Origin: Torpedo marmorata
Taxonomy: Eukaryota
DNA length: 64,000 bases
NCBI GenBank assembly: GCA_977017645.1
Contig: OZ360227.1
Coordinates: 113,150,001 to 113,214,000, forward strand
Reading direction: 5' to 3'
Shown here: positions 2,350 to 33,651 of the stretch, in pieces
Numbering within the stretch: the first letter of the stretch is position 1
How the letters are laid out: every line of letters begins with the position of its first letter
Position numbers and translations under genes: made by a program
Notes under the pieces: model-generated
Databases searched by the model: none
What the model was told of the DNA's origin: nothing
What the model saw: the letters and a program-made list of their open reading frames with translations, nothing else

Positions 2350-3895
2350 TGAAAATGCCTCAGGATGAATATACCTCAGGTTGCTGTGGGAAGTGAGGGA
2401 AGAGATAGCTGGGGCAGTGGCTATGATCTTTGAGTCCTCCTTGGCCACAGGGGACGTGCCAGAGGTTTGGAGAATGGCAAATGTGGTCCCCTTGTTTCAA
2501 AAAGGTAATAGGGAGAATCCTGGGAATTATAGAGACAGGTGAGTCTTACGTCAGTGGTGCGCAAACTATTGGAGAGGATTTGTAAGGATAGGATCTATGA
2601 GCATTTGGAGATGTACAGTCTACTCAAGGATAGTTAGCATGGCTTTGTGAAGGGAAGGGCATGCCTCATGAGCCCAATTGAGAGTTTTGAGGAGGTAACA
2701 AAATAAGTTGATGAGGGTAGGGCAGAAGATGTGGTCTATATGGATTTTAGTAAGGCATTTGACAAGGTCCCCCATGAGAGACTTGTTCAGAAAGTCATGA
2801 GGCATGGGATCCATGGAACTTTGTTTGTATGGATTAAAAATTGGCTTGCATGAAGAAAGCAGAGAGTAGTAGTGGAAGTAAAGTATTCTGCCTGGAGGTT
2901 GGTGATTAATGGAGTTCCGCAGGGATCTGTTCTGGGACCCCTACTCTTTGTGATTTTTATAAATGACCTAGATGAAGAGGCAGAAGGATGGGTCAGTAAG
3001 TTTGCAGATGATACAAAGGCAGAAGGAGTTGTGGATGGTGCTAAAGATTGTCGTAGGTTACAAAAGGATATAGACAGGATGCAGAGTTGGGCAGAAAAGT
3101 GGCAGATGGAGTTCAATCTAGATAAGTGTGAGGTGATGCATTTTGGAAGGACAAACTAGAAAGCTGAGTACAGGGTTAATGGTCGGTTACTTAAGAGTGT
3201 GGATGAACAGAGGGACCTTGGGGTCTAAATTCATACATTTCTCAAGGTTGCCGCGCAGGTTGATAGGATAGTTAAGAAGGCCAATGGGATGTTGGGCTTC
3301 ATTAATAGGGGGATTGAGTTCAAGAGTCATGTTGCAACTCTACAAATCTCTGGTGAGACCACACTTGGAGTATTGTGTTCAGCTCTGGTCACCTCATTAT
3401 AGGAAGGATGTGGAAGCTATGGAGAGGGTGCAGAGGAGACTTACCAGGATGTTGCCTGGATTGGAAAATGTCTTATGAGGCAAGGTCAGCAGAGCTGGGA
3501 CTTTTCTCTTTGAGCGAAGAAGGATGAGAGGAGGCTTAATAGAGGTCTACAAAATTATGAGAGGGAAAGATAGGGTGGACATCCAGCGCCTTTTTTCCCC
3601 AGGGCAGAGGACATATGTACAAAGTGAAGGGAGGGAAATTTAGGGGAGACATTAGGGTATGCTTTTACACAGAGAGTTCTGGGTACCTGGAATGCCTTGC
3701 CAGGGATGGTGGTGGAGGCTGCAACATTAGGGGCATTTAAGAGACCCTTAGACAGGCACATGGATGGAGGAAAAATAGAGGGTTACGAAGTAGGAAGGGT
3801 CAGTACTTTTTTTTAAAGGAATATATGGTTCGGCACAACACCGAGGGCCGAAGGGCCTGTACTGTGCTGTAGTGTTCTATGTTCTATATTCTATC
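2350..3895 (+). mobile_element. CR1 LINE, 5'-truncated and degenerate
   Basis: RT motifs GVPQGSVLGPLLF, SKFADDTK and LVRPHLEYCVQLWSP; 3' end gggccgaagggcctgtactgtgctg followed by a (ttctat) tail. Confidence 0.93.
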
Positions 3896-11871: not shown

Positions 11872-14451
11872 CTGAAATATATAGATATCAAATTGAATGT
11901 GGTGATACTTATTAGAGCTAACTAAAATAGAAATTCTTCTATTGCCTTTTATTTCACTCAACTCTCAAAATTATCTAAAATTTAATATTGTGGGTGTAGA
12001 TTTTAACTTTCAATAAAAGATGGGCTGAGATCAGGTTAGAAGTTAAGATTTTACAGATAGAACATGGAAATAAGTCTATGGAACAAATTCCCAGGTATGA
12101 TTCATTCTGCACTACTGTATAGTGACGAATGATTTAGACTTCAGCCACAAACTTGCATTGATTTTGTCTTACTGTTGCTTCACTTACACTAAGGCTTCAT
12201 AATAAGAAAACTCATGTATTTGTGCATTTGACGTATAACTGATGCAATGGTAGAATAAAATCAATCATTTAACCACAGCTTTATCAGTTATTCAGACTTC
12301 CGTCTGCATTCAATTCATTCCATTTTAAATCAATAAGTCAAGAAAGGGCGTATTTCCCTAACGTCGCCTTTTATGAGCAAGACAACAGTAACCAAATCTG
12401 TTTGACATTGATCTTAAAGCTGCAGCGGAATATATTTATGAAATCATAGAAGAACCCAATTTAGAATATACAACTGCAGCTATATAATCCTGTAATATAG
12501 GACATCTTGCATTTAAGTACCAATTTTAGTGCAGCAATTGTATTAAGGTTTTGAAGAGTAATTATCTCCATTGAACCGGATGAGATAACATAACACTTAG
12601 TCAAGGATATAGGTTCTCAGGGAGAGAAGAGAGTATGATTTAGGGAGAATTTACAGTTGTCTCCAAAGGCCTCCAACAATGAATTAGAGAAAGTAGGTAA
12701 TGTGTAAAAAAAAAACAGAATTGAAAGACTTTGCTGCAAGTTGGACAGAACCAGTGCCTCAATGTTACTGGGTTTCGATATTTTAGATGACATGCAGAGG
12801 GGGTTAAAAGAGATGGAGCGGTTGCATTACTAATCAGGGAGAATTCCATAGCTGCATTTAGAGAGAACATATGGTGGTCTCATTCACTGAGGCAGTATGG
12901 GAAGAGAGAAATAAAAAAAGTACAATCTCTCTGATAGGGTTATACCATTGGTCTCCCAATAGCCACTGAGAGATGGGGGAACAGATATGATGGACAGATT
13001 ATGGAAAGGTTCAAAAATAAATGGGTTGTTTGGAAAGGCATGGTCAGATTAGATGTAGTCAGCAGGCTTTGAGCAGGGCAAATCATTTCTTACAAATTTG
13101 ATTGAGTTTTTTGAAGAGGTGACAAAGGTAGCTGCAGTGGATGTTGTCTACATGGACTTCGGAAGGCATTTGACAAGGTCCCTCATGGTAGACTGATCTA
13201 GAAGGTGTGTATGGGATTCAAGGTGAATTGATAGTTTGGATTCAGAATTGTCTGGCCCATAGAAGATAGAGAGTAGTATTGGAAGAGTGTTATTCCCGCA
13301 GGAGGCCCATGTCCAGTGATGTTCCACAGGGACCCCTAGTTTGTTGTATATGTAAATTTCTTAGATGTTAAAGTCGGTGGGTGGGTTAGTAAGGTTGCAG
13401 ATAACACAAAGATTGGTTGAGCTATAGTCAGTGTAGGGGGCTATCAAAACTACAGCAGGGGATAGATCATTTACAGTTATGGGCAGGGATAAGGCAGATG
13501 GAGTTTAATCCAGACAAGTGTGAGATGCAGCATTTTGGGAGGTCAAATGGAAGGGGAACATATGCAGTTAATACAGTGGCGGATTAACTACCACCCGGGA
13601 CCCTAGGCTGAATTTTAGTAAGGCTCCCCAAGGTCGGCATCATGGGGGGGGAGCATTTACGGGCCATGCCCCAACTCACCTCCTTCCAACCCCCTCTCTC
13701 TCTCTCTCTCTCTCACACTCACTTGGAGTTGCGCGTTCCACAGCTTGTTGGCTGGTTTAGAGGAATTTTTACAGACTCCGTAAAGTTAAGGACAAATCGG
13801 TGCGTTGTGGTGGTAAATTTAATTTTGGAAGAAAGTAGGGAGGGCGGGGGGAGGGGGAATGACTTTTAATCGGTTGTAGTTCCAACGCTTGTGTGTTTTA
13901 AATTGAAGATTCAGCTATTTAAATTGAAGCTTATACCCACTCTCATCATAAGATGATTTTGTGTGGATGTGGGTCATGTCAGTTTCAATCTTTAAAGCTG
14001 TTCTATGCTTTACCACTCTTTTGGGTTAGTATTGCAATTTCACTGTTAATTTTGGAGAGAATGGGTGAATTAATTCTAAATGCACACTCTCTTCCCCTCA
14101 CCCTCACTCTCTCGTTGACGCCATTGTTCTCCGTGGACGCTGCCCGAGCCACGAGGCCCCTCTAGCTTTTCCCAGACAGCTGGACTGCCTGTGTTCCCCC
14201 TCCCTGCCCGCCCATCGGCCGCTCACCTTGATCCACAGCTCATTGGCCGCTCCGCTCAGATCCACCATGACGAGCGGAGAACCTCTGACCCCGTACAGCA
14301 CGCCCCCTTCCGGCTGCCAGTGGAAGCACAGAGGATCCTCAACGCAAACCGCCGCGCGGGGAAGATCCTTCGGCCCGCCGTATTCGTGCTGTCTGAAGAC
14401 CACATTCTGCACTGTATGGTCTTCCATCTCATTTCAAGAGTTTATCTAACT

Positions 14452-17030
14452 TTCTTTTTTTGTAAATTAATTAAACTAATTAATCTAGCTATAATATCTT
14501 TTGAATATCTATTCTTAATAAAACCAGCTTGATCTACATGAATTAAATCTCGTAAATAATTGGCCATTCTATTAGCTAAAATTTTTGCCATTATCTTATA
14601 ATCTACATTTAACAATGAAATAGGTCTATATGACTCAGTTTTCAATACATCTCTATCTTTTTTTGGTATAACTGTAATTATTGCATTTAAAAATGTATCC
14701 GGTAGTGAATGGGTTTCCGTAATTTGATTTAATACATCCATTACCATTAGTATTAACGTTAGATGCCGAAAAGGCTTTTGATAGACTAGAGTGGAATTTT
14801 TTATTTAAGGTGTTGGAGAAATTTGGTTTTGGAATTACGTTTATTAATTGGATTAAAACTATATATAAAGAACCAACTGCTAAGGTGACTACAAATGGAC
14901 AGATTTCTTCAAGATTTCCTTTGACTCGATCTACTAGACAAGGATGTCCTTTGTCACCAGCGTTATTTATTTTGGCGATAGAACCTTTGGCAGAATTAGT
15001 TAGAAAAGATCCTAAAATAGTTGGTATTAAAGTTGGAATGGAAGAACATAAAATTAGTTTATTTGCAGATGATGTATTGATATATATGACAAAATCTACT
15101 ACATCTTTAGTACAACTGTCTGTGTTATTGAGAGAATATGGGGAAATATCAGGATATAAAATTAATTCTGATAAAAGTGAAATTATGGCATTATCACAAG
15201 GGGATTATAGTAAATGTAAAGAAATTACACAATTTAAATGGGCAAAGGAAGGAATTAAATATTTGGGAATAAGGATTGACACAAAACTGGCTAATTTATA
15301 TAAATTAAATTATTTACCATTATTTGTGAAAATAAAAAAGGATTTAGAAAATTGGAAAGATTTACCTATAACTTTAATGGGAAGAGTAAATTGTATTAAA
15401 ATGAATGTTTTTCCAAGAATTCAATATCTTTTTCAATCAATTCCTTATGAAATTCCTCAAAAATTTTTCAAAGATTTAAATTCAATTATTAGAAAATTTT
15501 TATGGAAAGGAAAGTTAGCAAGAGTAGGTATGGAAAAATTAACTTGGAATTATGAAATGGGTGGTTTACAACTTCCTAATTTCCAAAATTATTATAAAGC
15601 AGCTCAATTAAAATTTGTTAATGAATTTTTTGATTCAACTAAATTTTCTGCTTGGATTAAAATAGAATTAAATAATATAGGAGAAGATTCTAAAGAAGAG
15701 GTTATTTATAAATGGGACTCTAAATTAATATCAACAAGAAAGAAAAATTCTCCTATTCTTAAACATTTGTTAGAAATATGGAATAAGACGGATAAGGAAA
15801 TAGGAGGAAAAGGATTGATTTCTTCAAGGATGCCTTTATATCAAAATGGACTTATTCCATTTACTATTAATAATCAATTATTTAAAATTTGGTTTCAAAA
15901 AGGAATTAAGAAAATAAATGATTGTTTTGAAGCTGGGAAATTTATTTCTTTTCAAAGAATGAAAGATAAATTTAATATATTAGATAATACACTTTTTGCT
16001 TATTATCAAATTAGAGCTTTTTTGATTGAGAAATTAGGTAATGCTTTGATTTTACCAAGACAGAATGAACTAGAATTATTAGTTACTAAAGAAGATGTAA
16101 ACAAATTTATTTCTCAAATGTATAAATTGTTTCAGAGGAAAACTCCTAAAGTAGGAATTCATAAATCAAGATTAAAATGGGAATCAGATTTGAATGTAAT
16201 AATAGATGAAAATCATTGGAAGGAATTATGTAAATTAAGTATGACGAAGATTATTAATGTTAGATATAGATTAGTACAATACAACTTTTTTCATCAATTA
16301 TATTTAACACCTAAAAAATTAAAGAAATTTAACCCGACATTATCAGATTTATGTTTCAGATGTAAAAAAGAGGAAGGTTCTTTTGTACATTCTACATGGT
16401 TTTGTCCAAAAGTTTATGATTTTTGGTTGAAAGTTAAAATTTTTTTAGATAAAGTATTTAAGATTATATTTCCGATGGATCCTATGATATTTTTGTTTGG
16501 AGATCTTAAAAAATTTCGTATTAAGATGAAATTAAATATGTATCAAATAGAATTTTTGCGAATTGCTTTAGCTGTTTCAAAGAAATGCATTGCTATTACT
16601 TGGAAATCTGATGTTGATTTAGGGCTAGAAAGATGGCATGCAGAACTTCGTTCATGTATACCACTTGAAAAAATTACTTATAATTTACGAAATAAATATC
16701 ATTTCTTTTTGAAAATATGGAGCCCTTATATGAAAACTGTTGGATTAAGGATTTGAAGATCTCTGGACATTGGATCTACTGGCTACCAAACCTCCATAAT
16801 AAAATTAGTTTATAGATGTATTTATTAGATTGACATTCTCCTTACTTTATCTTTTTCTTCTTTATTTCTTTCTTTTTTTATATTTTATTAGATTAGTGGG
16901 GTTGGGAGGGTTGGGGAGGGGAGGGTGGGAGGGGGGTGAAAATGTATCACAAGTATTTTTGACAATTTTATATTTTATTCTATGTATTTTGTGATTTAAA
17001 ATTTTAAATAAAATATATATATAAAAAAAA
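14452..17030 (+). mobile_element. Young L1 with 5' inversion (14452-~14745 on - strand; body on + strand with an intact 648-aa ORF2 C-terminal half)
   Basis: ORF 14810-16756 (RQGCPLSP, LFADDV, CFRC...H...C); poly-A at ~17023-17030; 16-bp TSD aagagtttatctaact at 14436-14451 and 17029-17044. Confidence 0.95.
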
Positions 17031-17044
17031 GAGTTTATCTAACT

Positions 17045-17205
17045 CAGTGGTTCTCAACATTTTTCCACTCACATACCACCTTAAATAATCCCTTACTAAC
17101 CACAGAGCACCTGTGACATCCTATGCCATAGAATAGATGCTCTGTGGTTAGTAAGGGATTATTTAGGTGGTATGTGAGTGGAAAAATAAAGGGTGAGAAC
17201 CACTG
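17045..17205. mobile_element. Palindromic hAT/Charlie-type MITE inside composite hAT copy 1
   Basis: TIR cagtggttctca; internal palindrome; TSD atctaact/atctaaat; the equivalent copy is at 30614-30767. Confidence 0.85.
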
Positions 17206-18490
17206 ATCTAAATACATCTGACACAGAGAAAGATCCTGCCTCCACCAGCTCGTCCAGAAGCCAACAGTGGAGCACCTTCCAACATAGTCCTCTTATCCAC
17301 GCTGCTTACACTGTCAACGGCCCGGGTGGCAATAGCCCAGTGTGGAGAGGGGTGCATGAGGAGGGGAGGGGTTGGGCCAGTAGTGGGTTGCCTTTTTGCC
17401 GGTAGTAGTTTGTAAATGCATGCATGATGAGCCGAGCTCTGCAGCAGGAGGCAGACGCCGCAGACCTCAGGCTCAGACTTGCGCGTACTTTTTGCAAACG
17501 CGCGGCATGAGCATTGATTGAGCGACTAGAGAAGTATGACTACAATAATATGTATAATGTTGTACTTAGTACTAGTAGATAACATAACATGCATAATAAA
17601 ATATCATGAAGACAAGTTATATGAATCAATTATAACAGACCTTTTATTCCATATGATAGAATTATTAAACCATAACACTACTACAGCACATAAAACAGGC
17701 ATGATAGAACCATTAAATCATAGAACGAACACCACAGCTAACAGCACAGAAAGGCCATGATAGAACCATAGATAGAACCATTAGGGCAGCAAAAGCATGG
17801 GGACACCAGCAGTGGTCAGTGGACGTTGTAAAACAACAAGCCACACACAATTTGACTTGAAATACCCCCACCTTTCAACCATTCAGCGACCATTGCAATT
17901 TGCAAAGTCTGGGTACAATACAATTTCCAGACACTGTTCTGTTGTTCATAATTTAAACAACATAAATAAAATAATTAAAGTGATCACTTACTCCGATCCC
18001 GTGGCTGGCAGTCTGGCAGAGAGTCCAATTGAATCAGTTGTCCCTGACTTTTCTGTGAGCGACGCTGGCGCTACATGCATGATGAGTCGAGCTCTGCAGC
18101 AGGAGGCAGATGCCACAGACCTCAGGCTCAGACTTGCACGCGCTTTTTTCAAACGTGCAGCGTGAGCATTGATTGACAGGTAACATTGGGACCGTATATA
18201 ATTAAATAACAAACTGCTGCCTGCCTGCTGGTGCTGGTGAGCAAATAGCACCTGTGACTGTGTGGATCGCAATAGGGGGACACATCATACACGATTAACT
18301 TATTTTGTTAGTGATTTATTATCCATCACAAATCAGTCACATCATGCTGTGTCTTTGCTGCCCAGATTATTTAGATGGTGTTGAGGTGTTCACTTGGTTT
18401 ATGGAAAAGTGAGTGACTTGTTGTTGGGGCGGGGGCGTCGGGCGTATGCTGGAATATAACAAGGAAGAGTTTAGGAGCCCGGGCCCCCTC

Positions 18491-19159
18491 GAGTCCCGAC
18501 GAGCACGACACACCACCCGGGCCCGCAGCAGGCACCGAACTACCTATGTAACCTATCCCCGAAGTGGCACTGGTAGTTCAGTGCCTCAGCTGCCGGCCTG
18601 GGTCGTGTCGTGCTCGTTGAGACTCCCAAAATCCTCCACCTCCCCAACCACCAAACTATTAGAATTTTAACGTCTCTCCGACCGAATTGGACGTTAAAAA
18701 TCTAATAGTTTGGTGGTGGGAGGAACTGAGGAAGGTGGAGGATTGGGGAGTGGGTGCCGGATTGCCGGTGAGGGTTGAACTTTTAAAGCAGCTCGCCCAG
18801 AGCACCCAGAGCCTGAGTCGAGGCAGACAGTTAGTTAAGTAAGTGGCACTCTTGTTGTGGGCGCGGCGCTGCTGGGCTGGGTCACTGGGTGATACTGAGA
18901 GGCCACCTATCTGTGAGCTCAGTGAGGTGGCCTCTCGGTCAATCACAGCGGTGCCCACCAGAGTGCCACTTAAGTGTCTGCCTCCGGGCACTCTCTGGGG
19001 TGAGGCGAGCTGCTTTTCAACCCGGGCCCCCCCCCCCCCCCCAATCATCCTCGATTCCTCCACCTTCCCACCAAACTATTAGATTTTTAACATCCAATTC
19101 GGTCGGAGTCCGACCAATTGGACGTTAAAAATCTAATAGTTTGGTGGGAAGGTGGAGGA
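18491..19159. repeat. GC-rich array of long imperfect palindromes
   Basis: Hairpins at 18491-18625, 18623-18750, 18772-19023 and 19056-19159, with arms paired by eye. Confidence 0.9.
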
Positions 19160-19769
19160 TCATCCATTCGCAATCATCGCACACACGGGACACGTCACAC
19201 ACCACAATTCCGCAAAAAACGCAAATCTTCATCATGATGCCGCCGGCCCGCCGCCACCGGCTCCCAGAAACCACAGCGCGCGCGTCACCCCGGCAATGGC
19301 ACGATGCCGACTCGGTCCACGCCCACACTACTGCCGGCTTCTTCCGCGAAGGCGCAGACGCAGTAAGTAGAGACCAAGCAGCAGGCGCCTACCCTTAACT
19401 GAGTAGGCGCTGAAGCCTAGGGGCTCGGGCCCCCTTACCCTCCAGGCCCCTTGGTTTCAGCCTACTTAGCCTAATGGTTAATCCGCCACTGAGTTAATAG
19501 CAGGGACTTTTAAAGGCATTGATGTGCAGAGGGATCTGGGGGTTCAGATTCATAGACCTTTGAAAATGGCCACAAAAGTAGACTGGGTGGTAAAGAAGAC
19601 TTATGGTACGCTTGGCTTCATTGGCCAGGGATAGTGTATAAAATAACAAAGTCATGTTGCTGCTACATAAAATTTGGTTAGGACACACTTGCAGTATTCT
19701 GGTTTCCCCAAGAAAGGAAGATGTGGAGGTTTTAGAAAGGGTGTAGAAGAGATTTACCAGGATGTTTAG

Positions 19770-19925
19770 GAGTCACACAGAAGACTGCAGATGTTGGAAT
19801 CTGAATCACACTCTGCTGGAGGAACTCAGCGTGTCAAGCAGCATCAGTGGGAGAAAAGGAATAGTCGGCCTTTTGAGCCAACACCCTCATCGAGAGTGGG
19901 GAATGTAGTATAGGAGTAGAGAAAT
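19770..19925 (-). mobile_element. Short PLE-type tail fragment
   Basis: gactgcagatgttggaatctg...tgctggaggaactcagc, homologous to the other PLE tails. Confidence 0.65.
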
Positions 19926-20889
19926 GTAGCAGGATGTTGCTTGAATTGGAGAGTATGAGGTAAAAGGAGAGGTTGGACAAACTTAGGTTGTTTTCTCTGG
20001 AGTGCTGGATTTATGAGAGGCATTGATAGGGGAGACAATCAGTATAGATTTCCCAGGGGAAAAATGTCACATACTAGAGGACACAAGTTTAAGGTGGGGG
20101 GAAGGGATAATTTAGAGATGTGCCCAGCATTTTTTTTACATAGAGAATGGTAGGTGACTGGAACGAGCTGCCAGGGGTAGCTTTAAAAAGGGAAGGGAAG
20201 TTGTAGGTCGTTTCTTGACACAAGAAGCAGTAAAGAGAGATTTTTATTTTTAAAAATAGGATGATGAATGTCGTTTTAAGTGGGAGGCGGAACCATTAAC
20301 AATCTAAACCAGAGGCAACAAGAAAGGATTTTGCAGGGTCAGCAGTTGAATAAGACAAAGCACAAAGTTTTAGGTAGAAAAAATATGACTGCAAACAGGA
20401 TTTTCAGAATGTATAGAAAATAATTCTCTTTAATAAAATATTCTAAATGCAAAATGCTGTTCAGTTCATGCATTGTGTGTGGTTTTGACTTCTGTATCAA
20501 ATGAAGGATGCAGTCATCCTGGAATCAGCGCAAGTAAATTCACTTGATTGATTCTGGAGATGTAGTGCTGTACTATGAGAAGTTGAATAAGAATGCTTTT
20601 ACTCACTGGAGATGAGAAAAATGAGAAGCAATTTCACAGAGACACACAATATTCTATGGGAGATTGATAATTTAGGAATTGAAAGATTGTTTTCTCCTGT
20701 TGGATATCATCACTTTAGACTTAAGTGAGTAGAATTCTTTTTAAGTTGTAAATCTTTGAAATTCTCATCTGTTTGCTTAGTCGTTGGTATCGTGAAGGTG
20801 AGATCAATATATTTTTGGATCCAAAGAAAATCAGAGGATCTGGGAACTGCTTGGAAAAATATATATGGCATAGGGTTAATATTAATCTG

Positions 20890-21140
20890 GAGACACACAG
20901 AGAGACTACAAATATTGGAAAGTGGGGCAAAAAACAAACTGCCAGAGGAGCTAAGTGGGTCGAACAACATCAATGGGAGTTAAAGAATAGTTGACATTTT
21001 GTGTCGGAACCCTTCATTATGACTGAGAATGCAGAGGGGAGATAGCCAGTATAATGAGGACAGAGTGGGAGGCGCTGGATTGGAGCCAGTAAGGGATTGG
21101 TGAATGAGAGATGAGTAAAGGATGACAGACAGGTGGGGAT
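20890..21140 (-). mobile_element. Short PLE-type tail fragment
   Basis: gagacacacagagagactaca...gacattttgtgtcggaacccttcatta (decayed hammerhead on the - strand). Confidence 0.6.
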
Positions 21141-21159
21141 CATCCTTTCACAGGATATT

Positions 21160-21365
21160 ATGTGTCTCACCGACCAGGATTCAAATCCGCCGATTTCTGT
21201 TAGCAGTTTGTACATTCTCCGCATGACTGCTTAGGTTTCCTATGGGCGTGCCAGTTTCCTCCCACTTTCCAAAGAAGTACAGGGTTAGGAAGTTAATTGG
21301 TCACATGGATGTAATTGGCTCATGGGCCGTAAGGGTCTGTTACCGTGCTGTATCTCTAAATTATT
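21160..21365 (+). mobile_element. V-SINE/HE1-like SINE, partial
   Basis: V-domain gtttgtacattctccgcatgactgc...gtttcctcccac and a CR1-like tail gggccgtaagggtctgttaccgtgctgtatct. Confidence 0.8.
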
Positions 21366-21814
21366 TTGTTTCAAATCTCCAATGAGTATAGGCACTCTTA
21401 CTCAGTCGGATAAATAATAATAATCTAATAATAGTTGAGAAATTCTAAGGGTATATGACCTTTGGCTGCTTTTATTTCTTTGGTTGTTGTAAAATAACCA
21501 AAATCAATCTTTTCATATGGATAAAACAAAATCAAATTGTTGTATATAAAACAGCAAAACTTTTACAGGTTATGGACGAAAAAAATTACCAAATAAAAAT
21601 TTTTTGAAAAAGAACATTACTGAACATTTATCACCAGTGTCACCAAAGAAGGAACTTACCTTAATACATAGTTTTTTTTTTTGTTGGAAGATACTTTAAC
21701 TTGCTTCACAATCAATGAAGAATTTCCAAATGGTAAATGGTGATCAAAATGCATTTCTTAACAATCAACAATCATCTCCTTTTTTGCGCACATGCTGCCA
21801 CTTATAGGGTCTGA

Positions 21815-22075
21815 CAGCCATAAAATATAACAGGCCTTTCTGTCCAACTCATCTATATGGACCAAGTTGGCATCCTGGTCTAGTCCCATTTGCCTACGTT
21901 TGGATCATATCCTTCCTATCCATATCTATCCAAATGTATTTTGAATGATAAAATTGTACCCACTTCCTCTGGCAGTTCTTTCCAGATATGAACTGCCCTC
22001 TAAGGGAAAAGGTTGCCCCTCAAGTTCCACTTAAATCTCTCCCCTCTCACCTAAACATATGCCCTCCAGCTCTGG
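21815..22075 (-). mobile_element. CR1 3' fragment
   Basis: caggcctttctgtccaactc...ttaaatctctcccctctcacc is the reverse complement of the CR1 3' end. Confidence 0.7.
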
Positions 22076-22239
22076 AACCATCTGCTATATATAACTAGTT
22101 ATTTTAATATACATATTTACTACTGCTTTCTTCTTTGGGAAAGATAAAAAACAACCAGATGAATCATTAACATTGTTAATGACATGAACATTGTAAATAT
22201 TATTATCCCAAATGAATGAATGACAAAGCACTCCAGCTG

Positions 22240-22622
22240 CTGCAGGACATTCAGGAGCAGGGTCACAGAATGCAGGAGATCAAAGAACAGGTGTATATTG
22301 AAACAGATCCAATATATGGAAATGCGACCTGACCGTGTTGGAGGTTCGGATCTGGAGCTCGGGTTGCCGATTGTTTGGACTGGACTCTGTGTGGCTGCGG
22401 AGGCTGCGGAAGCGCTGGAGGCGAATCTACGGAGACTCGGTGACTCTGGGGGGACTCTCTTTTGCTTCTCTTTCTCTGACTGAAAGGAATGTTAGAGGCG
22501 CTTAGGCAATTTCTGCCGGTGACGAATCTGTCTGCCTTGCAGCAGGCAAAAAGAAATTTCATGGAATATGACACTGTCTTATTACTATGACAATAAATTG
22601 AATCTTGAATCTTGAATCTTGA
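22240..22622 (+). mobile_element. Short non-autonomous retroelement with a Rex1-like (ttgaatc)n tail
   Basis: Ends gacaataaattgaatcttgaatcttgaatcttg; the 3' ~120 bp are homologous to the tail of the 5S-derived SINE at 24562-24665. Confidence 0.6.
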
Positions 22623-24561
22623 AATAATCCCAGAATCACAAACCACAAGGACATATGACATGTTAGACAGTAACTTGGTATTGAGAATTATCACTAAACT
22701 CAACTCTTCCCTTTTGGATGGAGCTTAAATCAGCATTCACACCATGGTATCAAAGAGAAATTCTGTTATTTTGTCTCAATTTATGACTTAATTTTTGGTA
22801 TCCTCTTTTGCTTCATTTTTTTATCAAGATGAAGAACTGTATTATCAAATTAAACTAAAATGTACAATTTGCCTTATTTGAATGTATATACCATTAAATG
22901 CAAATCAATTTTCATGTATCACCTTTATTCCCCCTTCGTGCATGTCCCAGATAGACAAAACTGTTTAACTGTACATATTTTTTCAAAAGAGAAGTCATTT
23001 TTATTACCATTAACTCCATGTAACCAATTACAGAAAAAACATGTACAAAACATACCGAATAAAGATCCTAGCATAACTTTCCATTGATCAACTCTTGAAA
23101 TGTAGTTCTAATTTAGAAACTTCTAATTAATGCATTCACTTTGGACAAAGCATTACAGAATTTTATTGAAATGCTCTGCAAGTAGGTTTTAATCATTTTG
23201 ACACGTATGTCAACATATCCATATTAAAACCTAATATTTAATATAATTCTAACATCAACATGGATAATTCAAACTACCGGTAAATAATAAAAATATGCCT
23301 TTATCTCAAATATGATCTTCATCCTATGATAACAATTTTTGGCTAACTCCTGACTGACTTGTAGGCCAAATAGCTTCTTTCTCAACTGTGATAATTTTGT
23401 GATTCTATGATTCGGATGGTTTCCTCCAATGTAGAGACATCTATTATGCTCTGTAATTAGTTAAGTTGCCAATAAGCTTCTCATTGCCCTTCCAGTAAAT
23501 CTTCCAAAATCTACAGATTTCACCTTGCAGCCATCAGCAGATCGATCTTATATCTTAATGGATGTAACTTTTCTAAAGTTATAATGAAAATGCAAACCAA
23601 GCTGTCAAACCAATAGATTTACTGCAAAGATAGATTGCTGCAGGACAAAATGTGCCATCCAAGTACACCATTAGGAAAAATATCATGTTGGAAATGAGAA
23701 CTATCAGTGGTCTTTTTTTTGTGTTTACAAACAATAAGCAATATTTGTAGTTCTTGTATTTGACAATCCATTTGTAGCTTTATCTATTTTAGCATCAAGT
23801 TTTCAGTTAGCAATTTCTACTCATCCATTGGATTGTGAATTATTATTAGTGGCTCTCCTCTCCAGGATATATTATCATTATCCTTTTAGCACCAAATTAA
23901 ACCCAATTTTCTCTTTTTCCATTATGTTGAGGAAGACCTGCTCCTTTCTCCTTGGTGACTGTAATTTGCATTTATGTAACACTTGTAGTAATATGTCCCA
24001 GCATGTAAATGCTACTAAGAAAAATTTGCAAGTAACCAAAATTTTGGTCAAAGAGGTAGATTTTATGAATACATTTGAAGTATGAGATTTACAGGAATGG
24101 AGAGATTTAGGGCAAGAATTCTGGAGCCGAAGGCAGCTCAGACATTGTGGAGTGATTAACGTTGAAAACATGCAAGAAGGACATACAGGAAGCATGCAAA
24201 CATTTCAAAAGATTAGAGGTGTGGAAGATATACAGTGATAAGGAGAGTTAACGTCTTGAAAAGGATGAACTTCTTTTAAAAATGCATGTTGCCAGAATTG
24301 CAGTCAACATAGTACCTGATCGTAGGACCGAAAGATAAATGGAATCAGTGTGAATAGGACACGTGTTTTGGATAAGTTTCAGTTTACGAAGGATATAATA
24401 AAGGGTCTAACCCGGGACACACTGGAATAGTTGAGATTACAATTGACAGAGTGATGAATATGCTGAGATATATGCATAGATATAACTGAGATAATTATAC
24501 TCAATGAGCCCTTTCCATGCTATAAACTAACAGCTGCAAATTGTACTGTTTCAAAAGGTAA

Positions 24562-24771
24562 AGATTCCATTCCATTATTGTCACGTAATACTACATGAAA
24601 TTCTTTAATTTTTGTCTACCATAAGGCAGACAGAGGGTCGCTACTTTGTCCAGCGCCCCTCACAGAAACTTGGAGTTCCTTGAGGGTCTCCCCTCCAAGT
24701 ACTGACCAGTCCTGCGCCTGCTTAGCTTCCGAGATCAGACAATCCCAGTTGTATTCAGGCTATTGGTGCTG
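24562..24771 (-). mobile_element. 5S rRNA-derived SINE (SINE3-type)
   Basis: The - strand reads gtctgatctcggaagctaagcaggcgcaggactggtcagtacttggaggggagacc (5S internal promoter region), then a non-5S tail ending gacaataatggaatggaatc. Confidence 0.85.
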
Positions 24772-24869
24772 AACATGGTTCCATTAACTTCAGAATTTCT
24801 AGGCTATGTGATAAGAATCAAATGATATTTTAATTATGACAAAATAAAGTGACAAGCAGCCATATACAG

Positions 24870-27207
24870 AAGTCAAGTCAAGTCAAGTCACCTTTATTTG
24901 TCGTTCATTACCATATACACAGTAAGACGAGATAGCGTTTCTCCAGGACCATGGGCAGATGTACATAAATATCATAATACAATAAATAAACTACAACATG
25001 CTAATACACATACATATATCTAGAAATTGAGGAGCCTGATGGCTTGCGGGAAAAAACTGTTGCACAGTCTGGACGTACGAGCCCGAGTGCTTCGGTACCT
25101 CCTTCCAGATGGCAAAAGGGAAAAAAGTTTACCAAAGGGGTGTGAGAAGTCCTTCACAATGTTATTAGCCTTCCTCATGCATGGTGTGTTGTAGATGTCC
25201 ATCATGGTGGGAAGAGAGACACCAATAATTTTCTACGCTGACCCCACTATCCTCTGCAGGGTCTTTCGGTCTGAGATGGTACAGTTTCCAAACCAAGCGG
25301 TGATGCAATTGCTCAGAATACTCTCAATGCATCCCCTGTAGAATGTAGTAAGGATAGAGGGTGGAAGATGAACTTTCCTCAGCCTTCGCAGGAAGTAAAG
25401 ACGCTGCTGGGCTTTCTTGACTATGGAACTGGTGTTGAGGGACCAGGTAAGACTCTCCGCCAAGTGCACTCCAAGAAACTTGGTACTCTTTACGACCTCA
25501 AAAGTAGAGCTGTCCATGGTCAATGGAGAATGATCCCCCCGGGCCCTCCTGAAGTCGATAACCAACTCTTTTTTATTTACATTCAGATGCAGGTTGTTGG
25601 CTCCGCACCATTCCATTAGTGACTGCACCTCATCTCTGTATGCTGACTCATCGTTCTTGCTGATAAGGCCCACCACGCTCATATCATCATCGAACTTGAT
25701 GATGTGATTCGAGCTGTGTTTTGCTGCACAGTCATGAGTCAGCAGAGTGAACAGCAATGGACTAAGCACACAGCCCTGGGGAGCCCCCGTGCTCAATGTA
25801 ATGACCTTAGAAGTGTTGTTTCCAATCCGGACTGCCTGAGGTCTTCCCGTCAGGAGTCTAGAATCCAATTACAGAGGGTGTTGTTTAGGCCCAGCCCGCT
25901 CAACTTCCCTATCAGGTACTGAGGTATGATCGTGTTGAATGCCGAGCTGAAGTTAATAAACAGCATTCGAACATACGCGTCCTTATTTTCCAGGTGGGTG
26001 AGGGCTAGATGGAGGGTGGTAATGATGGCATCATCTGTAGAGCGGTTTGATCTATATGCGAAATGCAGGGGGTCCAGTGAGGGGGGCAGCAGAAGCTTGA
26101 TGTGCCCCATGACGAGCCTCTCGAAGCACTTCATGACAGAAGATGTGAGTGCGACAGGGCGGTAGTCATTGAGGCAGGACACCGTCGACTTCTTCGGCAC
26201 GGGGATGATGTTAGTGGCTTTGAAGCACGTTGGAACCACGACACTGCTCAGGGAGATGTTAAAGATGTCGGTGAGAACATCAGCCAGCTGGGCCGCACAT
26301 CTCCTGAGCACTCTGCCGGGAATGTTATCTGGACCAGCAGCTTTCCTTGGGTTAACCTTGCTTAACACTCTCCTCACGTCGGCCACTGTAAAACACAGCA
26401 CCTGATCATTTGGAGGAGGGTTGGTCTTCTTTGCTGCTACATAATTTTTTGCCTCAAAACGTGCGTAGAAGTTGTTCAGTGCATCTGGGAGGGAGGCATC
26501 ACCAGCACAGTCAGATATTGTGGTCTTGTGGTTGGTGATATCTTGAATGCCCTTCCACATGCGTCGCGTGTCCTTGCTGTTCTGAAAGTGACTCTGAATT
26601 TGCTGGGCCTGTGCACGCTTTGCCTCCCTGATGGCCTTAGACAGCTTGGCTCTCGCAATAGCTAGGGTTACCTTGTCGCCCTCACTGAAGGCAGAGTTTC
26701 GACTCCTCAGCAGCACACGCACCTCCGCAGTCATCCATGGCTTCTGATTAGAGCGAGTAATGATGGTCTTGGGCACAGTGACTTCGTCAATACACTTACT
26801 AATGTAGCTAGTCACTGATGCCGTATCCTCCTCCAGATTGATGCAGTCGCCATCGGTTGCTGCTTCCCTGAACATGTGCCAATCAGTACGCTCAAAGCAG
26901 TCCTGAAGTGCATGGATGTCACCTGCTGGCCAGGTTTTAACCTGCTTCAGAACTGGTCTGGAGCGTCTGGCGAGCGGCCTGTATGCTGGGGTTAGCATTA
27001 CAGAGATATGGTCTGAGTATCCGAGGTGGGGGCGGGGCTCCGCCCGATACGCGTCGGAAATGTTCGTAAACACAAGGTCCAACATGTTCGCCCCTCTCGT
27101 AGCAAAGTCCACATACTGATGGAATTTAGGTAGCCCTGACTTGAGGTTCGTCTGGTTGAAGTCCCCAGCGATAATCAGCAGTCCATCAGGGTGTGCGGTC
27201 TGCAGTA
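24870..27207 (-). mobile_element. Rex1/Babar-type LINE (partial EN + RT), 5'-truncated
   Basis: ORFs 25850-27256 (AGDFN, SDH) and 25233-25868 ([10 protein letters not shown]); (GACTT)n tail. Confidence 0.93.
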
Positions 27208-27344
27208 TCCAGCTAAAATAGAAGTTAAAAAGCAGGAAAGAAAATACCATCTCCATAATTAATTATGAATATAGTTGTACTACCAAGAAATGGATCAGAT
27301 GGTCAAGAGATTGAAAGGCCATAGTCATAAAATTATACAGCACA

Positions 27345-27840
27345 GAAAAATGCCACCACAACTATTTCAATTCTGCACTCCACTCCCTCGCTGGCATGTC
27401 TGTCCATGACCTCATGCACTGCCAAACTAAGGCGATCCGTAAATTGTGGAGCAACACGTAATATTCCAACTTAGCACTCTCCAACCGGATTCATTAACAT
27501 TGACTTCTCTAGTTTCTGCTAGATCACTCCCATTCTCTCTCTCTTCCCTATCCCTCTGTCTCCTTCCCTCGAGCTCTCCATCCCCTTCCCCCTCCATTCA
27601 CCAATTCACCTCTTACCTCTTGCCTGTGGGCCTGTGTTTCTCCCCCTGCCCACCTTCCCCCAACCATTTTATTCAGGTGCCTGCCTACATCTTGCTCACA
27701 CCTTGATGAAGGGTTCAAGCCCGAAACGTTGGTTACGTATCTTTATCTTTGCTTTCTAAAATACGCTGTTTGACCTGCTGAGTTTCTCCAGCATTGTGTT
27801 TTTACTTCAATCACTGCGTCTGCAGACTTTCGTGCTTTAC
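27345..27840 (+). mobile_element. PLE 3' fragment with hammerhead-like motif at ~27697-27735
   Basis: EQHVIFQLSTLQPDSL; ccttgatgaagggttcaagcccgaaacgttgg. Confidence 0.85.
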
Positions 27841-28580
27841 GCCACCACAACTACCGGTATGTTGATAGTCAATTACCCATCTATGCTAATCACATTTACC
27901 AGCATTTGGTTCATAGCTTTCTATGCCCTGGCATTTCAACAGCTCATCACTTCCACCATCCACTGTGCATTTCAGATTCCCTCTGGATGAAAAAGTTCTT
28001 CAAATGCCCTTTAAGCCTCATTCTCTTTATTCTAAACTTATGTTGATAGTAAAATTAGAAATTTTATCAAAACAGCTAAAATTAAAGCAGATTAATCAAA
28101 TTGCACGATAAACTGACAATTCTCAACCAATTGTATCTCTACATTTTAGGTAAAGATATACCTAGATTTAAAAAGTGAGGCAAATTCCCCCTGAGAACTA
28201 TTGACCAATGGGTTTAACATCAGTAATATGAATAATAATGATAATCAATTTCATTCTCAGGAAGGAAATACAAAAAAAGTGAAAAGCAAAAAATTCATAA
28301 TGGATAATCAGCATGGATTTGTAAAAGGTAAAACCTTAAATATGCCAAAATTATTTTTAAAATAAGCCATTCTGAACAGCTGTTATGAAAGGATGATTAA
28401 TCAAAAATGTCTGTGATTTTACATGAGGTCATAAAATCATGTGTATGGTAGATGTGAGATTTCTTTAAGAATGTACATGGGTATTTCTTTTTCTACTGCA
28501 GTGCTGGCCAACATCTGGCCTCTAGCCAAACTAATGACTTATCTAAACTACATTTTCATTTTGAAAATTTTAATTTTCAG

Positions 28581-28637
28581 GTGAAACGTTATGATCTTTC
28601 AGGTTATCGTCCAGTTCTACCAGATCTGCCAATGTGA
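28581..28637 (+). CDS. Candidate terminal exon (VKRYDLSGYRPVLPDLPM*), product unknown
   Basis: ttttaattttcag acceptor followed by a short protein-like frame; no homology recognised. Confidence 0.2.
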   Translation: MKRYDLSGYRPVLPDLPM

Positions 28638-30613
28638 TCTAGTTCATGAACATTACATATAATACACAAATTTTATGAGCAACTAATGTTATATCTCTCT
28701 AAATTGGTCTCGATCAACAAAGCAAATGATTCTGTAATTTAAAACTTTTCATGGACATGGTTTTAATTGTATGACTTCATTATCACTACCCCCAGAGTGG
28801 GAATCTCGGGAGAACCACTGTAAAACAGTATTACAAGATTCTCATTAAAATAAATTATGACTATTACAGGAAATGTCACATTGTGCAATCAGAATCAATT
28901 TCCTGCAGCATAACATTTCTGTACAACCTTGAGGCTGATCCACTGACTTGGCTTCATTAAATTCAGGTTCAATTAACCATATTAGTCAACCATTCTCCTT
29001 GCATGAATTCTGGGTTCCCTCTTCTAAAAATGTAACCATAGCAACCAATTTGCCTTTTATACATCTAAAAACCAGTGGCGGATTAACCATAAGGCTGAGT
29101 AGGCTGAAGCATAGGGGTCCGGAAGGTAAGGGGGCCCATCAAACAACAATAGAAATAAGAAATACAACAATAGAAATAAGAGATACAACAATAGCAATGT
29201 TACTTTAACTATGCCAAAGAGAACTAAGCCACAATATTAAAAGTATTTTAAAATTGCAACAACTTGTAGCTTTCAAAGCTTCTGTCGATTGGCTTTCACC
29301 TATTTACTGAAATCAAAAAACAACGGCGGCAGCGGCTCAATGTGGGATCAATGGCCGTCTTCATTAATCATAATGCCCCACGCAGCTGGAACCGCTCTGC
29401 CTGTGCCAGCGCCAGGGAAACGTGCATGCCTGTGAAGAGTAATGCAGTTAAAGCACACACACACACACAAATAAAACAACATTCGGCAATGCATCACAAA
29501 TAAATAAATAAATAAATAGATATAAATATAAACACACATGCATTTAGCAAATAAACAACACAAACTTGTAAATGGAATACAAGGTTTAAAATTCATCAGT
29601 CTGCCCCTGTCTGCTGGAGACGCCTGTCCCGCTCGGTTGGTTTTGACTCAGTCAGGAACCAACAGTGAAATCACACAAAATCCAGCGTCATGAATAATTA
29701 GATTGCTAAAACACTCCCGTTTATTTCTATACGAGAGGGTAAGAGTTCTGTGTAAACAAGACGCATTATCAATTATCCAAGCTTTAAAAAACATTCTTAT
29801 TTTGACAAGTTTTATCATTTCCTCGCGTTGGCTACTTGCAATGAAATTGTCAGTGTACATCAATACACACAGCAAAGTAGGGATGACCTGTCACATCCCA
29901 GAAAGAGAGAAGAGAACAACATTTGAATCATCCCTCCACAAATAAAGCTTTTCAGAATTAAATCCTTTCAAAGCACCCCACCCCCCAAAATCAGTTGGAA
30001 GCAAACCTGTATTAAAATTTATATGGCATGCATTTAAAAAAAATAAATCATGCTTTCAAAATTGCTAATCAAATATTGAAGTTAAAATATAAATGCATCA
30101 TTTCACGCTATAACGACGCTCAGCGACCGACGGTACATTATATTAATAAAAACTGCCTTACCAAGACGTGATACATACAAACGAACAGGTAACACTGAAC
30201 ACAAAATTAACGAATTAAAGTATTAATTTCTCATTCAGTTGTGCCTTGGAGGGATATGGATCAAGTGCAGGGAAATGGAATTAGCCCAGAAGAAGACCAT
30301 ATTGCATTGACTAGTTGGGCTAAAGGGCCCGTACCACGCTGTTTGACTTTATTAGCATACCATCCAATATGTCTTGTACCCAGTGGCACTATTCCCAAAG
30401 TTCACAACGTCCAATGATCACTGCACCCACTAGTGCATGGCACTCGGTGACACATCATTCGTTCCCAATGTGCACCATTAAATTTATTTTCCTGTAGTGG
30501 GTTGACAGTGTAAGCAGCGTGGATAAGAGAACTACGTTGGAAGGTGCTCCACTGTTGGCTTCTGGACGAGCTGGTGGAGGCAGGATCTTTCTCCGTGTCA
30601 GATGTATTTAGAT

Positions 30614-30767
30614 CAGTGGTTCTCAACCTTTATTTTTCCACTCACATACCACCTTAAATAATCCCTTACTAACCACAGAGCATCTATTCTATGGCATAGG
30701 ATGTCACAGGTGCTCTGTGGTTAGTAAGGGATTATTTGAGGTGGTATGTGAGTGGAAAAATGTTGAG
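30614..30767. mobile_element. Palindromic hAT MITE (one TIR truncated), same insertion as 17045-17205
   Basis: Near-identical sequence with the same flanks. Confidence 0.85.
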
Positions 30768-31091
30768 TTTGATAAACTCTTGAAATGAGATGAGATAGAA
30801 GACCATACAGTGCAGAACGTGGTCTTCAGACTGCATGAATACGGAGAGCCGAAGGGTCTTCCCCGCGCGGCGGTTTGCATTGAGAATCCTCTGCGCTTCC
30901 ACTGGCAGCCGGAGGGGGGCGTGCTGTCCGGGGTCAGAGGTTCTCGGCTCGTCATGGTGGATCCAAGCGGAGCGGCTGATGGGCGGGCAGGGAGGGGGGA
31001 CACGGGTAGTCCAGCTTCCTGGGAAAAGCTGGAAGGGCCTCGTGGCTCGGGCAGCGTCCATGGAGAACAATGGCGTCAACAAGAGAGTGAG

Positions 31092-31552
31092 TTTGTAAAA
31101 ATTGCCTTAGCAGTATCTAGGAAATGTATTGCTATAACTTGGAAATCAGGTACAGACTTAGGAATTGAGAGATGGAATGCGGAAATTCGTAGCTGTATAC
31201 CACTTGAGAAAATTACATATAGCTTAAGGAATCGATACCATATATTTTGGAAAATATGGTGCCCATATTTTCAGAGGGTTGGAATGAATGTTTAATCATT
31301 TCTCTGGTAACCTTAATCTTTGGTGAACTCCTTTATTTCATGATAAATATGATTTCTGGAAAAGGACTCTCTCTTTTTTCTTCCATGTTGTATCTTTTTC
31401 ATTCTTTCTTCCTTCTTTCTTGGGGCTTTAGGGGGAAGGGGTGGGGGGAGCGGGATATATACATACCACATGTATAATGGATTAGACTATTTTAAAGATT
31501 TGTATTGTAAATTTTATTTGGTGGTTAACAAAAAAAACAAAACAAAAAAAAA
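31092..31552 (+). mobile_element. L1 3' fragment
   Basis: FVKIALAVSRKCIAITWKS...CIPLEKITY; A-rich tail; TSD aac(a/g)agagagtgag; absent from hAT copy 1. Confidence 0.9.
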
Positions 31553-31604
31553 ACGAGAGAGTGAGGGTGAGGGGAGGAGAGCGGGGAGTGTGCTTTTAGA
31601 ATTA

Positions 31605-32469
31605 CCCGTATATTTCGGCGTATAAGTCGACCCTTGAAACCCTCAAAAATGTCTCAAAAAACGGGGGTCGACTTATACGCCGGATATACTTTTGAGACCT
31701 TAAAATCAGCTCAAAATCGAGTTCACGTCGATTCGGCGTATAAGTCGACCCCTGAAAACACGATTCGGCGTATAGGTCGACCCTGGAAGCGCCTCCCCAC
31801 TGCCGGCGCCGCCGCTCCCCGACACCTCCCCACCGCCGGGCGCCGCCATAAACCACCCAGACATTCTACAATTGTAGAGCCCGAGGTCCCCGCTCCTACC
31901 CGGGAGAACGAGCTCCCCGCTCCTGCCTGGGAGAACGAGCTCCCCGCTCCTGCTCGGGAGAACGAGCTCCCCGCTACTGCCTTGGAGAACGAGCTCCCCG
32001 CTCCTGCCCAGGAGAACGAGCTCCCCGCTCCTGCCTGGGAGAACGAGCTCCCCGCTCCTGCTCGGGAGAACGAGCTCCCCGCTACTGCCTTGGAGAACGA
32101 GCTCCCCGCTACTGCTCGGGAGAACGAGCTCCCCGCTCCTGCTCGGGAGAAAGACGTCGCCGCACCTGCATCTTCCCGGCCAGAAGCAAAGGTTTTTTTT
32201 ACTGTTTTTTTTACTTACCGGTACTTGCTTAATTTACAGCTTTGTTACTTGGCGATTGGGATGTTGTAACAAATTTTGGGTTGTTGCTGGGAGGCCCAGA
32301 CAGCCTGAAAATTGGGGGTCGACTTATACGCCGGTCAATGCGCAACATCTCAGGCATCCCGATTTTTGGGGTCGACTTATACGCCGGATATACCATAAAA
32401 CCATTAAAATGAGGCTGAAAAAGGGGGGTCGACTTATACGCCGGTCGACTTATACGCCGAAATATACGG
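31605..32469. mobile_element. Non-autonomous Tc1/mariner-superfamily (Tc2/pogo-like) element
   Basis: TIR CCGTATATTTCGGCGTATAAGTCGACC; repeated subterminal gtcgacttatacgccg; TA TSD confirmed by the empty site in hAT copy 1 (~14063-14088). Confidence 0.9.
31880..32155. repeat. 27-bp minisatellite (GGGAGAACGAGCTCCCCGCTCCTGCCT-like), about 10 copies
   Basis: Direct tandem repeats; translate as (RENELPAPA)n. Confidence 0.95.
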
Positions 32470-33651
32470 TAATTCACCCATTCTCTCCAAAATGAACAGC
32501 GAAATCACAATACTAACCCAAAAGAGTGGTAAAGCATAGAACAGCTTTAAAGATTGAAAGTGACATGACCCAAATATGATATTGACTAAAATCCTCTTAA
32601 TTGATTGGCTTATTCCACCAAATCTGATACACATCCACACAAAATCGTCTTATGATGAGAGCGGGTATAAGCTTCAATTTAAATAGCTGAATCTTCCATT
32701 TAAAACACACAAGCGTTGGAACTACAACCGATTAAAAGTCATTCCCCCTCCCCCACACCCCCTCCACCAGCCCTCCCTATTTTCTTCCAAAATTAAATTT
32801 ACCATCACAACACATCGATTTGTCTTTAAGTTTACGGAGTCTGGAAAAATTCCACTAAACCAGCCAACAAGCTGTGGCACGCGCAACTCCAAGTGAGTGT
32901 GAGAGAGAGTGAGTGTGAGCGAGCGAGAGAGAGAGAGGGTTCGAAGGAGGTAAGTTGGGGCATGGGCCGCGAATGCCCCCCCCCATGACGCCGACCCTGG
33001 GGGGGCCTTACTAAAGCTCAGCCTAGTGGCCCAGGTGGTAGTTAATCCGCCACTGCTAAAAACAATTAAAAAATCAGAATACTGGGTATTTCTCCCACGC
33101 ATACAGCATCAATTATGCTAAGAAAAATCACTTCTAATTTCATTGTTGCAAAATTCCAGCATGATGCTTATAGAATCACATGAAATTTAATATCTAAAAT
33201 CAAGAATGTGATTTGACTACATGTAATTAAGTATTTATTTCAACAATGAAACTTTAATAGGTCCACTCATTAATTTAATTTTACATTTATTTTACTGTAG
33301 GCTGTTCTTCTCATTTGGGAATAAATCAATATGCTTTACGTATTGTTGTGGATACACGCAGACTTGGTACGCCGCGTATGACGTCATGACGTATTATATA
33401 TAGCGTGGCGCGGGAAACCATTGTTAGTTTGGTAATAAAGAATGAATGAAGCACCACGTCTCTGTGTGCTTGTGTATATCTAAGCCTGGAATACACTACA
33501 GATTGGCGACGAGGATCGAAACGAACTTCCCTAACAAGGAAAGGGAGGAGAAGAAAAGAAAAAAATAAGAACACAAACCTACCACAGCAGTGAGCCCCAC
33601 AGGCTCACTCACAAGAGAAGAAAGAAAGGAAAACGCGGGAAACGACGCAAA

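Follow-up and report, generated by a model that had tools for sequence, protein, structure and literature searches.

The window analyzed here, a stretch of 64,000 nucleotides of Torpedo marmorata (contig OZ360227.1), contains two transposable elements, copies A and B, that have the same ends and one common arm, with different DNA in between (Table 1). How did elements with the same ends come to carry different interiors? The preliminary description of this locus saw in them a hAT lineage that captures and exchanges blocks of host DNA. Our analysis bears this out for the family, from its sister subfamilies and from an indel in the shared arm, but not for copy A.

TABLE 1 Features of copies A and B in the window
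Feature	Position	Strand	Description
TSD of copy A	left 13566..13573, right 19492..19499	.	8 bp
Copy A	13574..19491	+	non-autonomous hAT element, 3.3 kb net (3,325 bp); by alignment an internal deletion of type III, the long transposase-coding layout
Family left end in A	13574..13629	+	56 bp including TIR; common to all interior classes
Shared arm X, first part (X0, X1, GC-rich X2)	13630..14451	+	
L1-type insertion in A, later	14436..17044	+	16-bp TSD; RT frame 14723..16753
MITE, palindromic, old, from another hAT-like family	17036..17214	.	fixed within shared arm
Shared arm X, last part (X3)	17215..17318	+	stops at A/B switch point
Left arm of type II transposase origin (a1 to a3)	17319..18194	+	includes 103-bp direct repeat
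Deletion point in A	18194..18196	.	~3.6 kb missing, transposase gene included
Type III right arm in A	18196..19423	+	135-bp palindrome 18491..18625; 530-bp inverted-repeat module 18631..19160
Family right end in A	19424..19491	+	65 to 68 bp including TIR
Copy B	29073..33055	-	non-autonomous subfamily, 2.6 kb net; TSDs 29065..29072 and 33056..33063
B right arm (b3, b4)	29138..29433	-	also in C-type subfamily, whose interior differs
B-only cargo (b1, b2)	29434..30500	-	contains old CR1-like 3' remnant, ~30245..30348
Shared arm X and left end in B	30501..33055	-	
L1 3' tail in B, later, poly-A	31092..31552	+	13-bp TSD, 1 mismatch
MITE in B, later, at TA	31605..32470	.	minisatellite inside

Both copies are bounded by exact 15-bp TIRs, and these four are the sole matches in the window when up to two mismatches are allowed; each copy also has its own perfect 8-bp TSD (AGTTAATA for A and CTAAAAAC for B). 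As described previously, A and B diverge sharply at 17318 and 30501, match again over the last 65 bp (88% identity), and encode no transposase. The common arm of ~1.15 kb is likewise real once later insertions are excluded (a 2,593-bp L1 in A; an L1 tail and a MITE, which we take to be of the Tc1/mariner type, in B), and its consensus differs by at most 1.5% between B and the A/type III copies. The two L1 pieces inserted independently, at different sites and each with its own TSD; the reverse transcriptase frame in A contains an RVT_1 domain (Pfam, E 1e-26). The MITE embedded in the arm was correctly placed, but the CR1 tail that had been assigned to the arm sits in the B-only cargo. The arm MITE consensus matches 50 free copies at a median of 84% (maximum, 92%), and the CR1-like remnant is 74 to 77% identical to 6 free copies, with a median of 97.5% across 40 in-family matches. 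This repeat debris is old, older than the spread of the family.

The family is abundant: a genome-wide count of exact right ends gives at least 1,151, against 0 in the control. Of the two possibilities raised earlier, high copy number or local hopping, the first holds; B is no local hop of A, because the two belong to separate subfamilies and have different TSDs. The 47 complete elements, a set that leaves out L054 with its two right ends, measure 336 to 8,934 bp, and 41 of them have a TSD with at most one mismatch. At least 11 interior classes occur among 34 complete copies sampled in genome order, and only ~56 bp at the left end and ~65 bp at the right end are common to the copies. Between these same ends L068 encodes DUF4371 (E 8e-11) and Dimer_Tnp_hAT (E 3e-6) domains, and the short TIRs, the 8-bp TSDs, and a hAT transposase place the family in the hAT superfamily; from the end sequences and DUF4371, we presume that the transposase belongs to the Tip100 group. 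Transposase-coding elements, candidates for the autonomous partner anticipated in the preliminary description, exist in several forms. Among 41 transposase loci examined (of 156 candidates), in which the longest frame has 523 aa, there are three coding layouts of ~3.0, 4.3 to 5, and 6 to 7 kb with nearly the same transposase, and the longest is the left arm of B joined to a transposase element of the middle layout. The type consensus sequences are 1.4 to 3.3% apart, and copies differ from their consensus by ~3%.

Copy A is collinear with L001, L002, and L020 and with both arms of L008 and L049; L008 aligns to bases 3456 to 4621 and 4623 to 5916 of A, on either side of its transposase, and type II elements align to the a1-to-a3 arm from about base 175 of their own sequence. 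Because its supposed cargo equals the arms that flank the transposase in nine long coding copies, A is, judging from these alignments, an internal deletion product of a ~6.9-kb transposase-coding element; what it carries is transposon arm and not captured host DNA, which sets it apart from Pack-TIRs. Elements of the Ds type arise from autonomous hAT elements by internal deletion. A fits this description exactly; B and the gene-carrying subfamilies do not, and at none of the 41 loci does B run collinear with the two arms of a coding element.

Capture of host DNA is evident at the level of sequence in two of these sister subfamilies, TTPA-like and actin-like, each of which has an intact TIR-free gene in the genome. 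The first exon of a TTPA-like gene was seen at 16 distinct insertion sites. Its intact TIR-free counterpart, L122, differs from the element consensus at 4 of 201 exon positions, and a CRAL_TRIO exon follows on that strand, 76 kb downstream. The second gene, L266, is an actin-like, TIR-free locus with an intact frame of 411 codons, and ~930 bp of it, that is, most of the gene, occurs at a divergence of 3.8 to 4.0% in two subfamilies that differ in their left arms. This piece is carried by 13 TSD-bounded elements (12 with paired TSDs, and L053); a further measure, 150 scored actin-like matches, consists mostly of unexamined loci and includes demonstrated family members only in part. Since four other TIR-free actin-like loci (L252, L255, L263, and L267) stand no farther from the consensus of the elements than do the elements themselves, a pseudogene may have been the direct source. 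With TIR-free parents (L122 and L266) and multiple copies that have distinct TSDs, the family as a whole corresponds to what has been called a Pack-TIR.

Blocks are also distributed across bodies in a way that points to repeated arm exchange. A 55-bp indel in the shared arm was typed in copies with either body, with 13 copies undecided and L141, L149, and L157 removed as duplicates; the insert is present in 7 and absent from 30 copies with an A body and present in 30 and absent from 2 copies with a B body. The indel had suggested a transfer from B to type III, but the wider sample put both states on both bodies, and this direction was abandoned. The arm tree is star-like and uninformative on arm history.

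We think it probable that A and B belong to separate subfamilies within a single high-copy hAT family in which only the tips are shared. Because ~56 and ~65 bp of end sequence are all that copies have in common, the interior could likely lose sequence, trade it with other members, or take up host DNA, most plausibly by template switching during repair. Transposase supplied in trans would have moved all subfamilies, and the mosaics would stem either from template switching in the course of repair or from the use of a neighbor's end. A rival model, that of Pack-CACTA elements (Gisby and Catoni), derives mosaics from nesting and fusion of neighbors, in which inner ends are lost and outer ends mobilize the whole. 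The 3.4-kb actin subfamily, with its fixed and partly doubled right end, would suit such fusion, as would a 155-bp element that carries the right end twice and the lack of microhomology at the junction of X3 with type II sequence. An independent second element lies nearby at 2 of 120 loci, in addition to A and B, which is a weak clustering signal, and every copy listed lacks an inner TIR remnant at the X3 junction. Exchange within shared sequence is also the simpler account of all four arm-body combinations, and we consider fusion a somewhat unlikely source of the mosaics.

Could B, like A, be a simple deletion product of a long autonomous element, one whose parent was unsampled or has been lost? 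The preliminary description had named deletion of both cargos, with no TIR-free donors, as the reading opposed to its own, and for A deletion is indeed demonstrated. A parent of B could lie among the candidates outside the 41 sampled, and our searches found no donor for B. The b1/b2 cargo occurs in 0 of the 41 transposase loci, however, and all 22 retrieved b2 matches have the layout of B and lack a transposase, so that B's cargo appears not to be a deletion product of any examined locus. Moreover, subfamilies B and C have both ends in common and different interiors, with 352 bp identical between their consensus sequences at the right arm (b3, b4), and deletion leaves the TTPA-like and actin-like subfamilies unaccounted for. 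We regard plain deletion of both copies as improbable. On the preferred reading, the interior of B would be captured genomic DNA.

TIR-free donors, found for the TTPA-like and actin-like pieces, did not emerge for X or b. Searches with X2 (near-consensus query) and b2 returned family copies at 30 of 30 and 22 of 22 loci, a search for the empty MITE site gave 0 matches, and the b2/b3 junction pattern gave 4, all family copies. Of the junction candidates the best, L278, proved to be a B copy that carries an 888-bp insert; L161, which at first seemed to lack TIRs, is a B copy interrupted by other insertions. No donor locus was obtained with a translated b-cargo query, and no donor flank was seen in contigs of four sequencing runs that covered parts of B. 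The top 40 matches to the B cargo included no TIR-free parent, at a copy number (hundreds) that could hide one. No donor was seen among 30 loci each for the C type (L183 has no family module) and the L030 type (5 loci lack a TIR), and no low-identity match of the shared arm to free repeats was found. Pfam matched 2 interiors among 274 frames, both from elements other than A and B, and the A and B cargo gave nothing significant in PDB and homolog searches, a comparison of which the host coding sequences were not part.

Interiors might instead have been swapped between copies already inserted and fixed, through ectopic recombination or gene conversion and with no part for transposition. This might account for L107, L142, and other rare types, but crossing over of this kind should leave mismatched TSDs, and A and B have perfect ones and belong to multicopy subfamilies. 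Every mosaic has become fixed in numerous copies whose TSDs are intact and distinct, so the mosaics formed before amplification and this explanation is very improbable.

Pack-hATs are already known from a frog, maize, and fungi; the unusual features here are how many copies there are and that arms are exchanged with coding elements. Frog Pack-hAT-N8_XT, an animal Pack-TIR, likewise combines hAT ends with a 5' piece of a host gene, a TIR-free parent, and distinct TSDs that indicate repeated transposition (Tan et al. 2021, PMC8277862). In that broad animal survey, multicopy Pack-TIRs were rare and low in copy number (four cases in 370, the examples having about three to five copies), whereas the present family amplifies host pieces far more, with one exon at at least 16 sites and an actin-like piece in 13 TSD-bounded elements (150 scored matches). 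The passages of that paper considered here describe no exchange of arms with coding elements. Plant Pack-TYPE elements, which include maize Pack-hATs and form clusters of more than 100 copies in maize, resemble the family in that the ends are conserved and the interiors vary, blocks are gained stepwise, and fused members occur, but not in their host, which here is a vertebrate (Gisby and Catoni 2022, PMC8903248). By the rule of those authors, a match to coding sequence, the TTPA-like and actin-like subfamilies would qualify and A and B probably would not. A fungal hAT that amplified host histone H3 to hundreds of copies also carries its cargo within elements holding hAT domains (Dhillon et al. 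2019, PMC6710886). It has one cargo, inactivated by RIP, unlike the many interiors here, and the block inside our coding elements is not demonstrably genic. Bat Helitrons, also in a vertebrate, carry captured 5' gene ends at high copy number but, as rolling-circle elements, have neither TIRs nor 8-bp TSDs (Thomas et al. 2014, PMC4224331).

On a broader reading, which is possible and which we put forward tentatively, a vertebrate cut-and-paste family would operate at the scale of plant Pack-MULEs, gathering the 5' ends of genes, multiplying them tens to hundreds-fold, and passing blocks between non-autonomous and transposase-coding members, while the autonomous element would have grown from ~3 to ~7 kb in one short burst. 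Coding partners, donors, and intermediates coexist in one genome at ~3% divergence, and because they have been retained alongside such amplification, the family is well suited to tests of capture models such as gap filling, FoSTeST, and neighbor fusion. Hundreds of actin-like matches in the Torpedo genome may be transposon cargo.

The A/B feature in the window is real: the 15-bp TIR has exactly four exact matches there, one at each end of the two hAT copies, and each copy has its own TSD. Alignment of the copies bore out the layout given in the preliminary description, a common stretch of about 1.15 kb, a split at 17318/30501 and a renewed match over the terminal 65 bp. The CR1 tail assigned to this shared arm is not part of it, and the CR1-like remnant sits in B's own cargo. 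Copy A contains a 2,593-bp L1 with a 16-bp TSD, and copy B an L1 tail and a MITE inserted at TA, leaving net sizes of 3,325 bp and about 2,650 bp.

Features of the window and transposase-coding layouts of the family
Feature	Position or loci	Size	Remarks
Copy A TIRs	13574 and 19491		perfect 8-bp TSD
Copy B TIRs	29073 and 33055		perfect 8-bp TSD
Repeat pair	24872-26357 and 43933-45420	1.49 kb	inverted orientation, 94.8% identical
L1-type pair	6884-9464 and 14450-17030		87-88% alike; one end segment reversed relative to body
Type I, compact	7 loci	about 3 kb	family ends
Type II, medium	12 loci		family ends
Type III, long	9 loci + 5 partial		family ends

The family has common ends and mosaic interiors that were fixed before amplification. 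In the 6.2-Gb genome, a 29-bp right-end pattern gave 1,151 exact matches (control, 0), the high copy number that had been anticipated; the suggested local hopping does not apply, as B is no local hop of A. Sixty loci (the 20 best left-arm matches, plus the leading 40 right ends in a list of 100) yielded 47 complete elements, from 336 bp for the smallest to 8,934 bp, 41 of them having a TSD with at most one mismatch. The 40 loci picked in genome order gave 34 complete copies, which represent at least 11 interior classes, and many copies have only 56 bp and 65 bp in common with A and B. One 155-bp element has two right ends (L054:201-355); a similarly doubled right end is fixed in a 3.4-kb actin-carrying subfamily (ends of L256-L262).

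Transposase-coding partners with the same TIRs exist in three layouts. The transposase search returned 156 candidates; we examined 41 loci, the best 40 as scored plus L059, including 8 truncated ones beside types I to III. The encoded domains are DUF4371 and the hAT dimerisation domain. The longest transposase frame among these 41 loci has 523 aa, and no intact one was seen. Transposase consensus sequences of the types are 1.4-3.3% apart, with individual copies about 3% from consensus. Type I forms a clade in the transposase tree, and type III lies inside type II, except that one type II copy groups with III. Eight truncated copies (L077, L079, L082, L083, L086, L087, L090 and L098), mostly on small contigs and at most 0.4% from their own consensus, are likely one insertion spread by segmental duplication; so, likely, are L123 and L129-L132, which have one TSD in common. 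One type II arm (L073:897-4184) contains a minisatellite expansion of about 3 kb with a 1,096-codon open frame; expansions inside elements also occur at L022, L026 and L102, and a 54-bp unit in the B-only module b1.

Copy A is collinear with family loci L008 and L049 on either side of a single point, 18194/18196, at which about 3.6 kb including the transposase is absent. Because A matches the flanks of this missing block, its cargo is a transposon arm, and A is the deletion product that the preliminary description had set against cargo capture.

Type III is itself a mosaic, in which the arm common to B joins a type II element at about base 175, with no microhomology at that junction. The arm consensus of A and type III differs from that of B by at most 1.5%. 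Of the arms on A bodies, 7 carry a 55-bp segment and 30 lack it; on B bodies, 30 carry it and 2 lack it (13 arms undecided). That all four combinations occur points to repeated exchange of arms between A and B bodies, which may have run either way. Actin cargo likewise stands behind two different left arms. The proposed block exchange is supported by these combinations and the type III mosaic, but the interior of A is a transposon arm, not swapped host cargo.

B's layout, without transposase, recurred in all 22 fetched cargo matches (of the best 40 scored), and b1 and b2, its cargo modules, occur in 0 of 41 transposase loci. B has 97 bp at its start and 352 bp at its end in common with the sister C-type subfamily, whose interior is different. 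Whereas B's cargo is thus no deletion product of these loci, donor searches yielded no TIR-free locus for it: searches with the A and B cargo and the shared arm returned family copies only, or nothing, and these blanks are weak because only the best 40 matches were scored each time among hundreds of copies. Old repeat debris in B would fit captured genomic DNA: the MITE of the shared arm is 84% (median) and the CR1-like tail 74-77% like free copies, with B copies mostly 94-99% like the B consensus. Neither Pfam (274 frames), PDB nor homolog searches gave significant protein matches for the A and B cargo. On B's reverse strand (17215-17318 and 30501-30520), a splice-acceptor-like site precedes a run of 37 codons that ends in a stop immediately ahead of the shared-arm MITE; this may be a last exon, and it had no PDB match. 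The reverse strand of the C-type consensus (about 1250-1300; L171-L200) has an 18-codon hydrophobic start and a perfect splice donor, possibly another first exon. The minisatellite in B's nested MITE (31882-32169) is 74-86% like that of small family members L043, L051 and L052.

TIR-free donor loci for captured modules were found for two sister subfamilies. L034 contains a CRAL-TRIO N-terminal exon, which PDB matches and what we take to be its exon structure suggest is TTPA-like. Family ends flank 19 of 20 fetched exon matches (of the best 40 scored), giving 16 distinct insertion sites with L034. The remaining match, L122, is without family ends; its 67-codon exon is intact and has a GT donor, and a CRAL_TRIO exon lies 76 kb downstream on the same strand. 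Within the exon the element consensus departs from L122 at 4 of 201 positions, and within the intron at 10 of 161. In many copies the first 90 bp or so of the captured exon are duplicated, inverted, at the junction (L034:598-783).

An actin-like piece occurs in L053. Among 150 scored matches (498 candidates) of an actin protein search, 8 of the top 12 have a family TIR within 1.5 kb; 12 distinct elements have paired TSDs and measure 1.9-2.0 or 3.3-3.5 kb. TIR-free L266 has a complete 411-codon actin-like frame, presumably ACTL7/9-type, 3.8-4.0% from the element consensus. Because the TIR-free pseudogenes L252, L255, L263 and L267 are as near this consensus as the elements themselves, the direct donor may be a pseudogene instead of L266, and the 150 scored matches need not all belong to this family. 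L263 also matches (87%) an extra 470-bp module of L027.

We infer that members are mobilised in trans via the family tips and that blocks are gained and exchanged through template switching during repair. Fusion of neighbouring elements, a partial rival, would also give mosaics. Maize and rice have Pack-hATs and show fusion, according to Gisby and Catoni 2022 (PMC8903248). An independent second element occurred in 2 of our 120 loci (1.19 Mb), a weak sign of clustering.

Our literature search found no publication on hAT exon capture in elasmobranchs. The main text of Tan et al. 2021 (PMC8277862), whose species list is in the supplements, gives four multicopy cases in 370 animal Pack-TIRs and lacks the word "shark"; hAT goes unmentioned in sections of a shark and ray genome-size preprint. 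Sections of Dhillon et al. 2019 (PMC6710886) describe a fungal hAT multiplying histone H3 to hundreds of copies, and those of Thomas et al. 2014 (PMC4224331) bat Helitrons that likewise amplify gene 5' ends. The A/B family is a variation on already described Pack-hAT-like capture. A and B are poorer examples of capture than first proposed, and they reveal a high-copy hAT family that exchanges blocks and captures genes.
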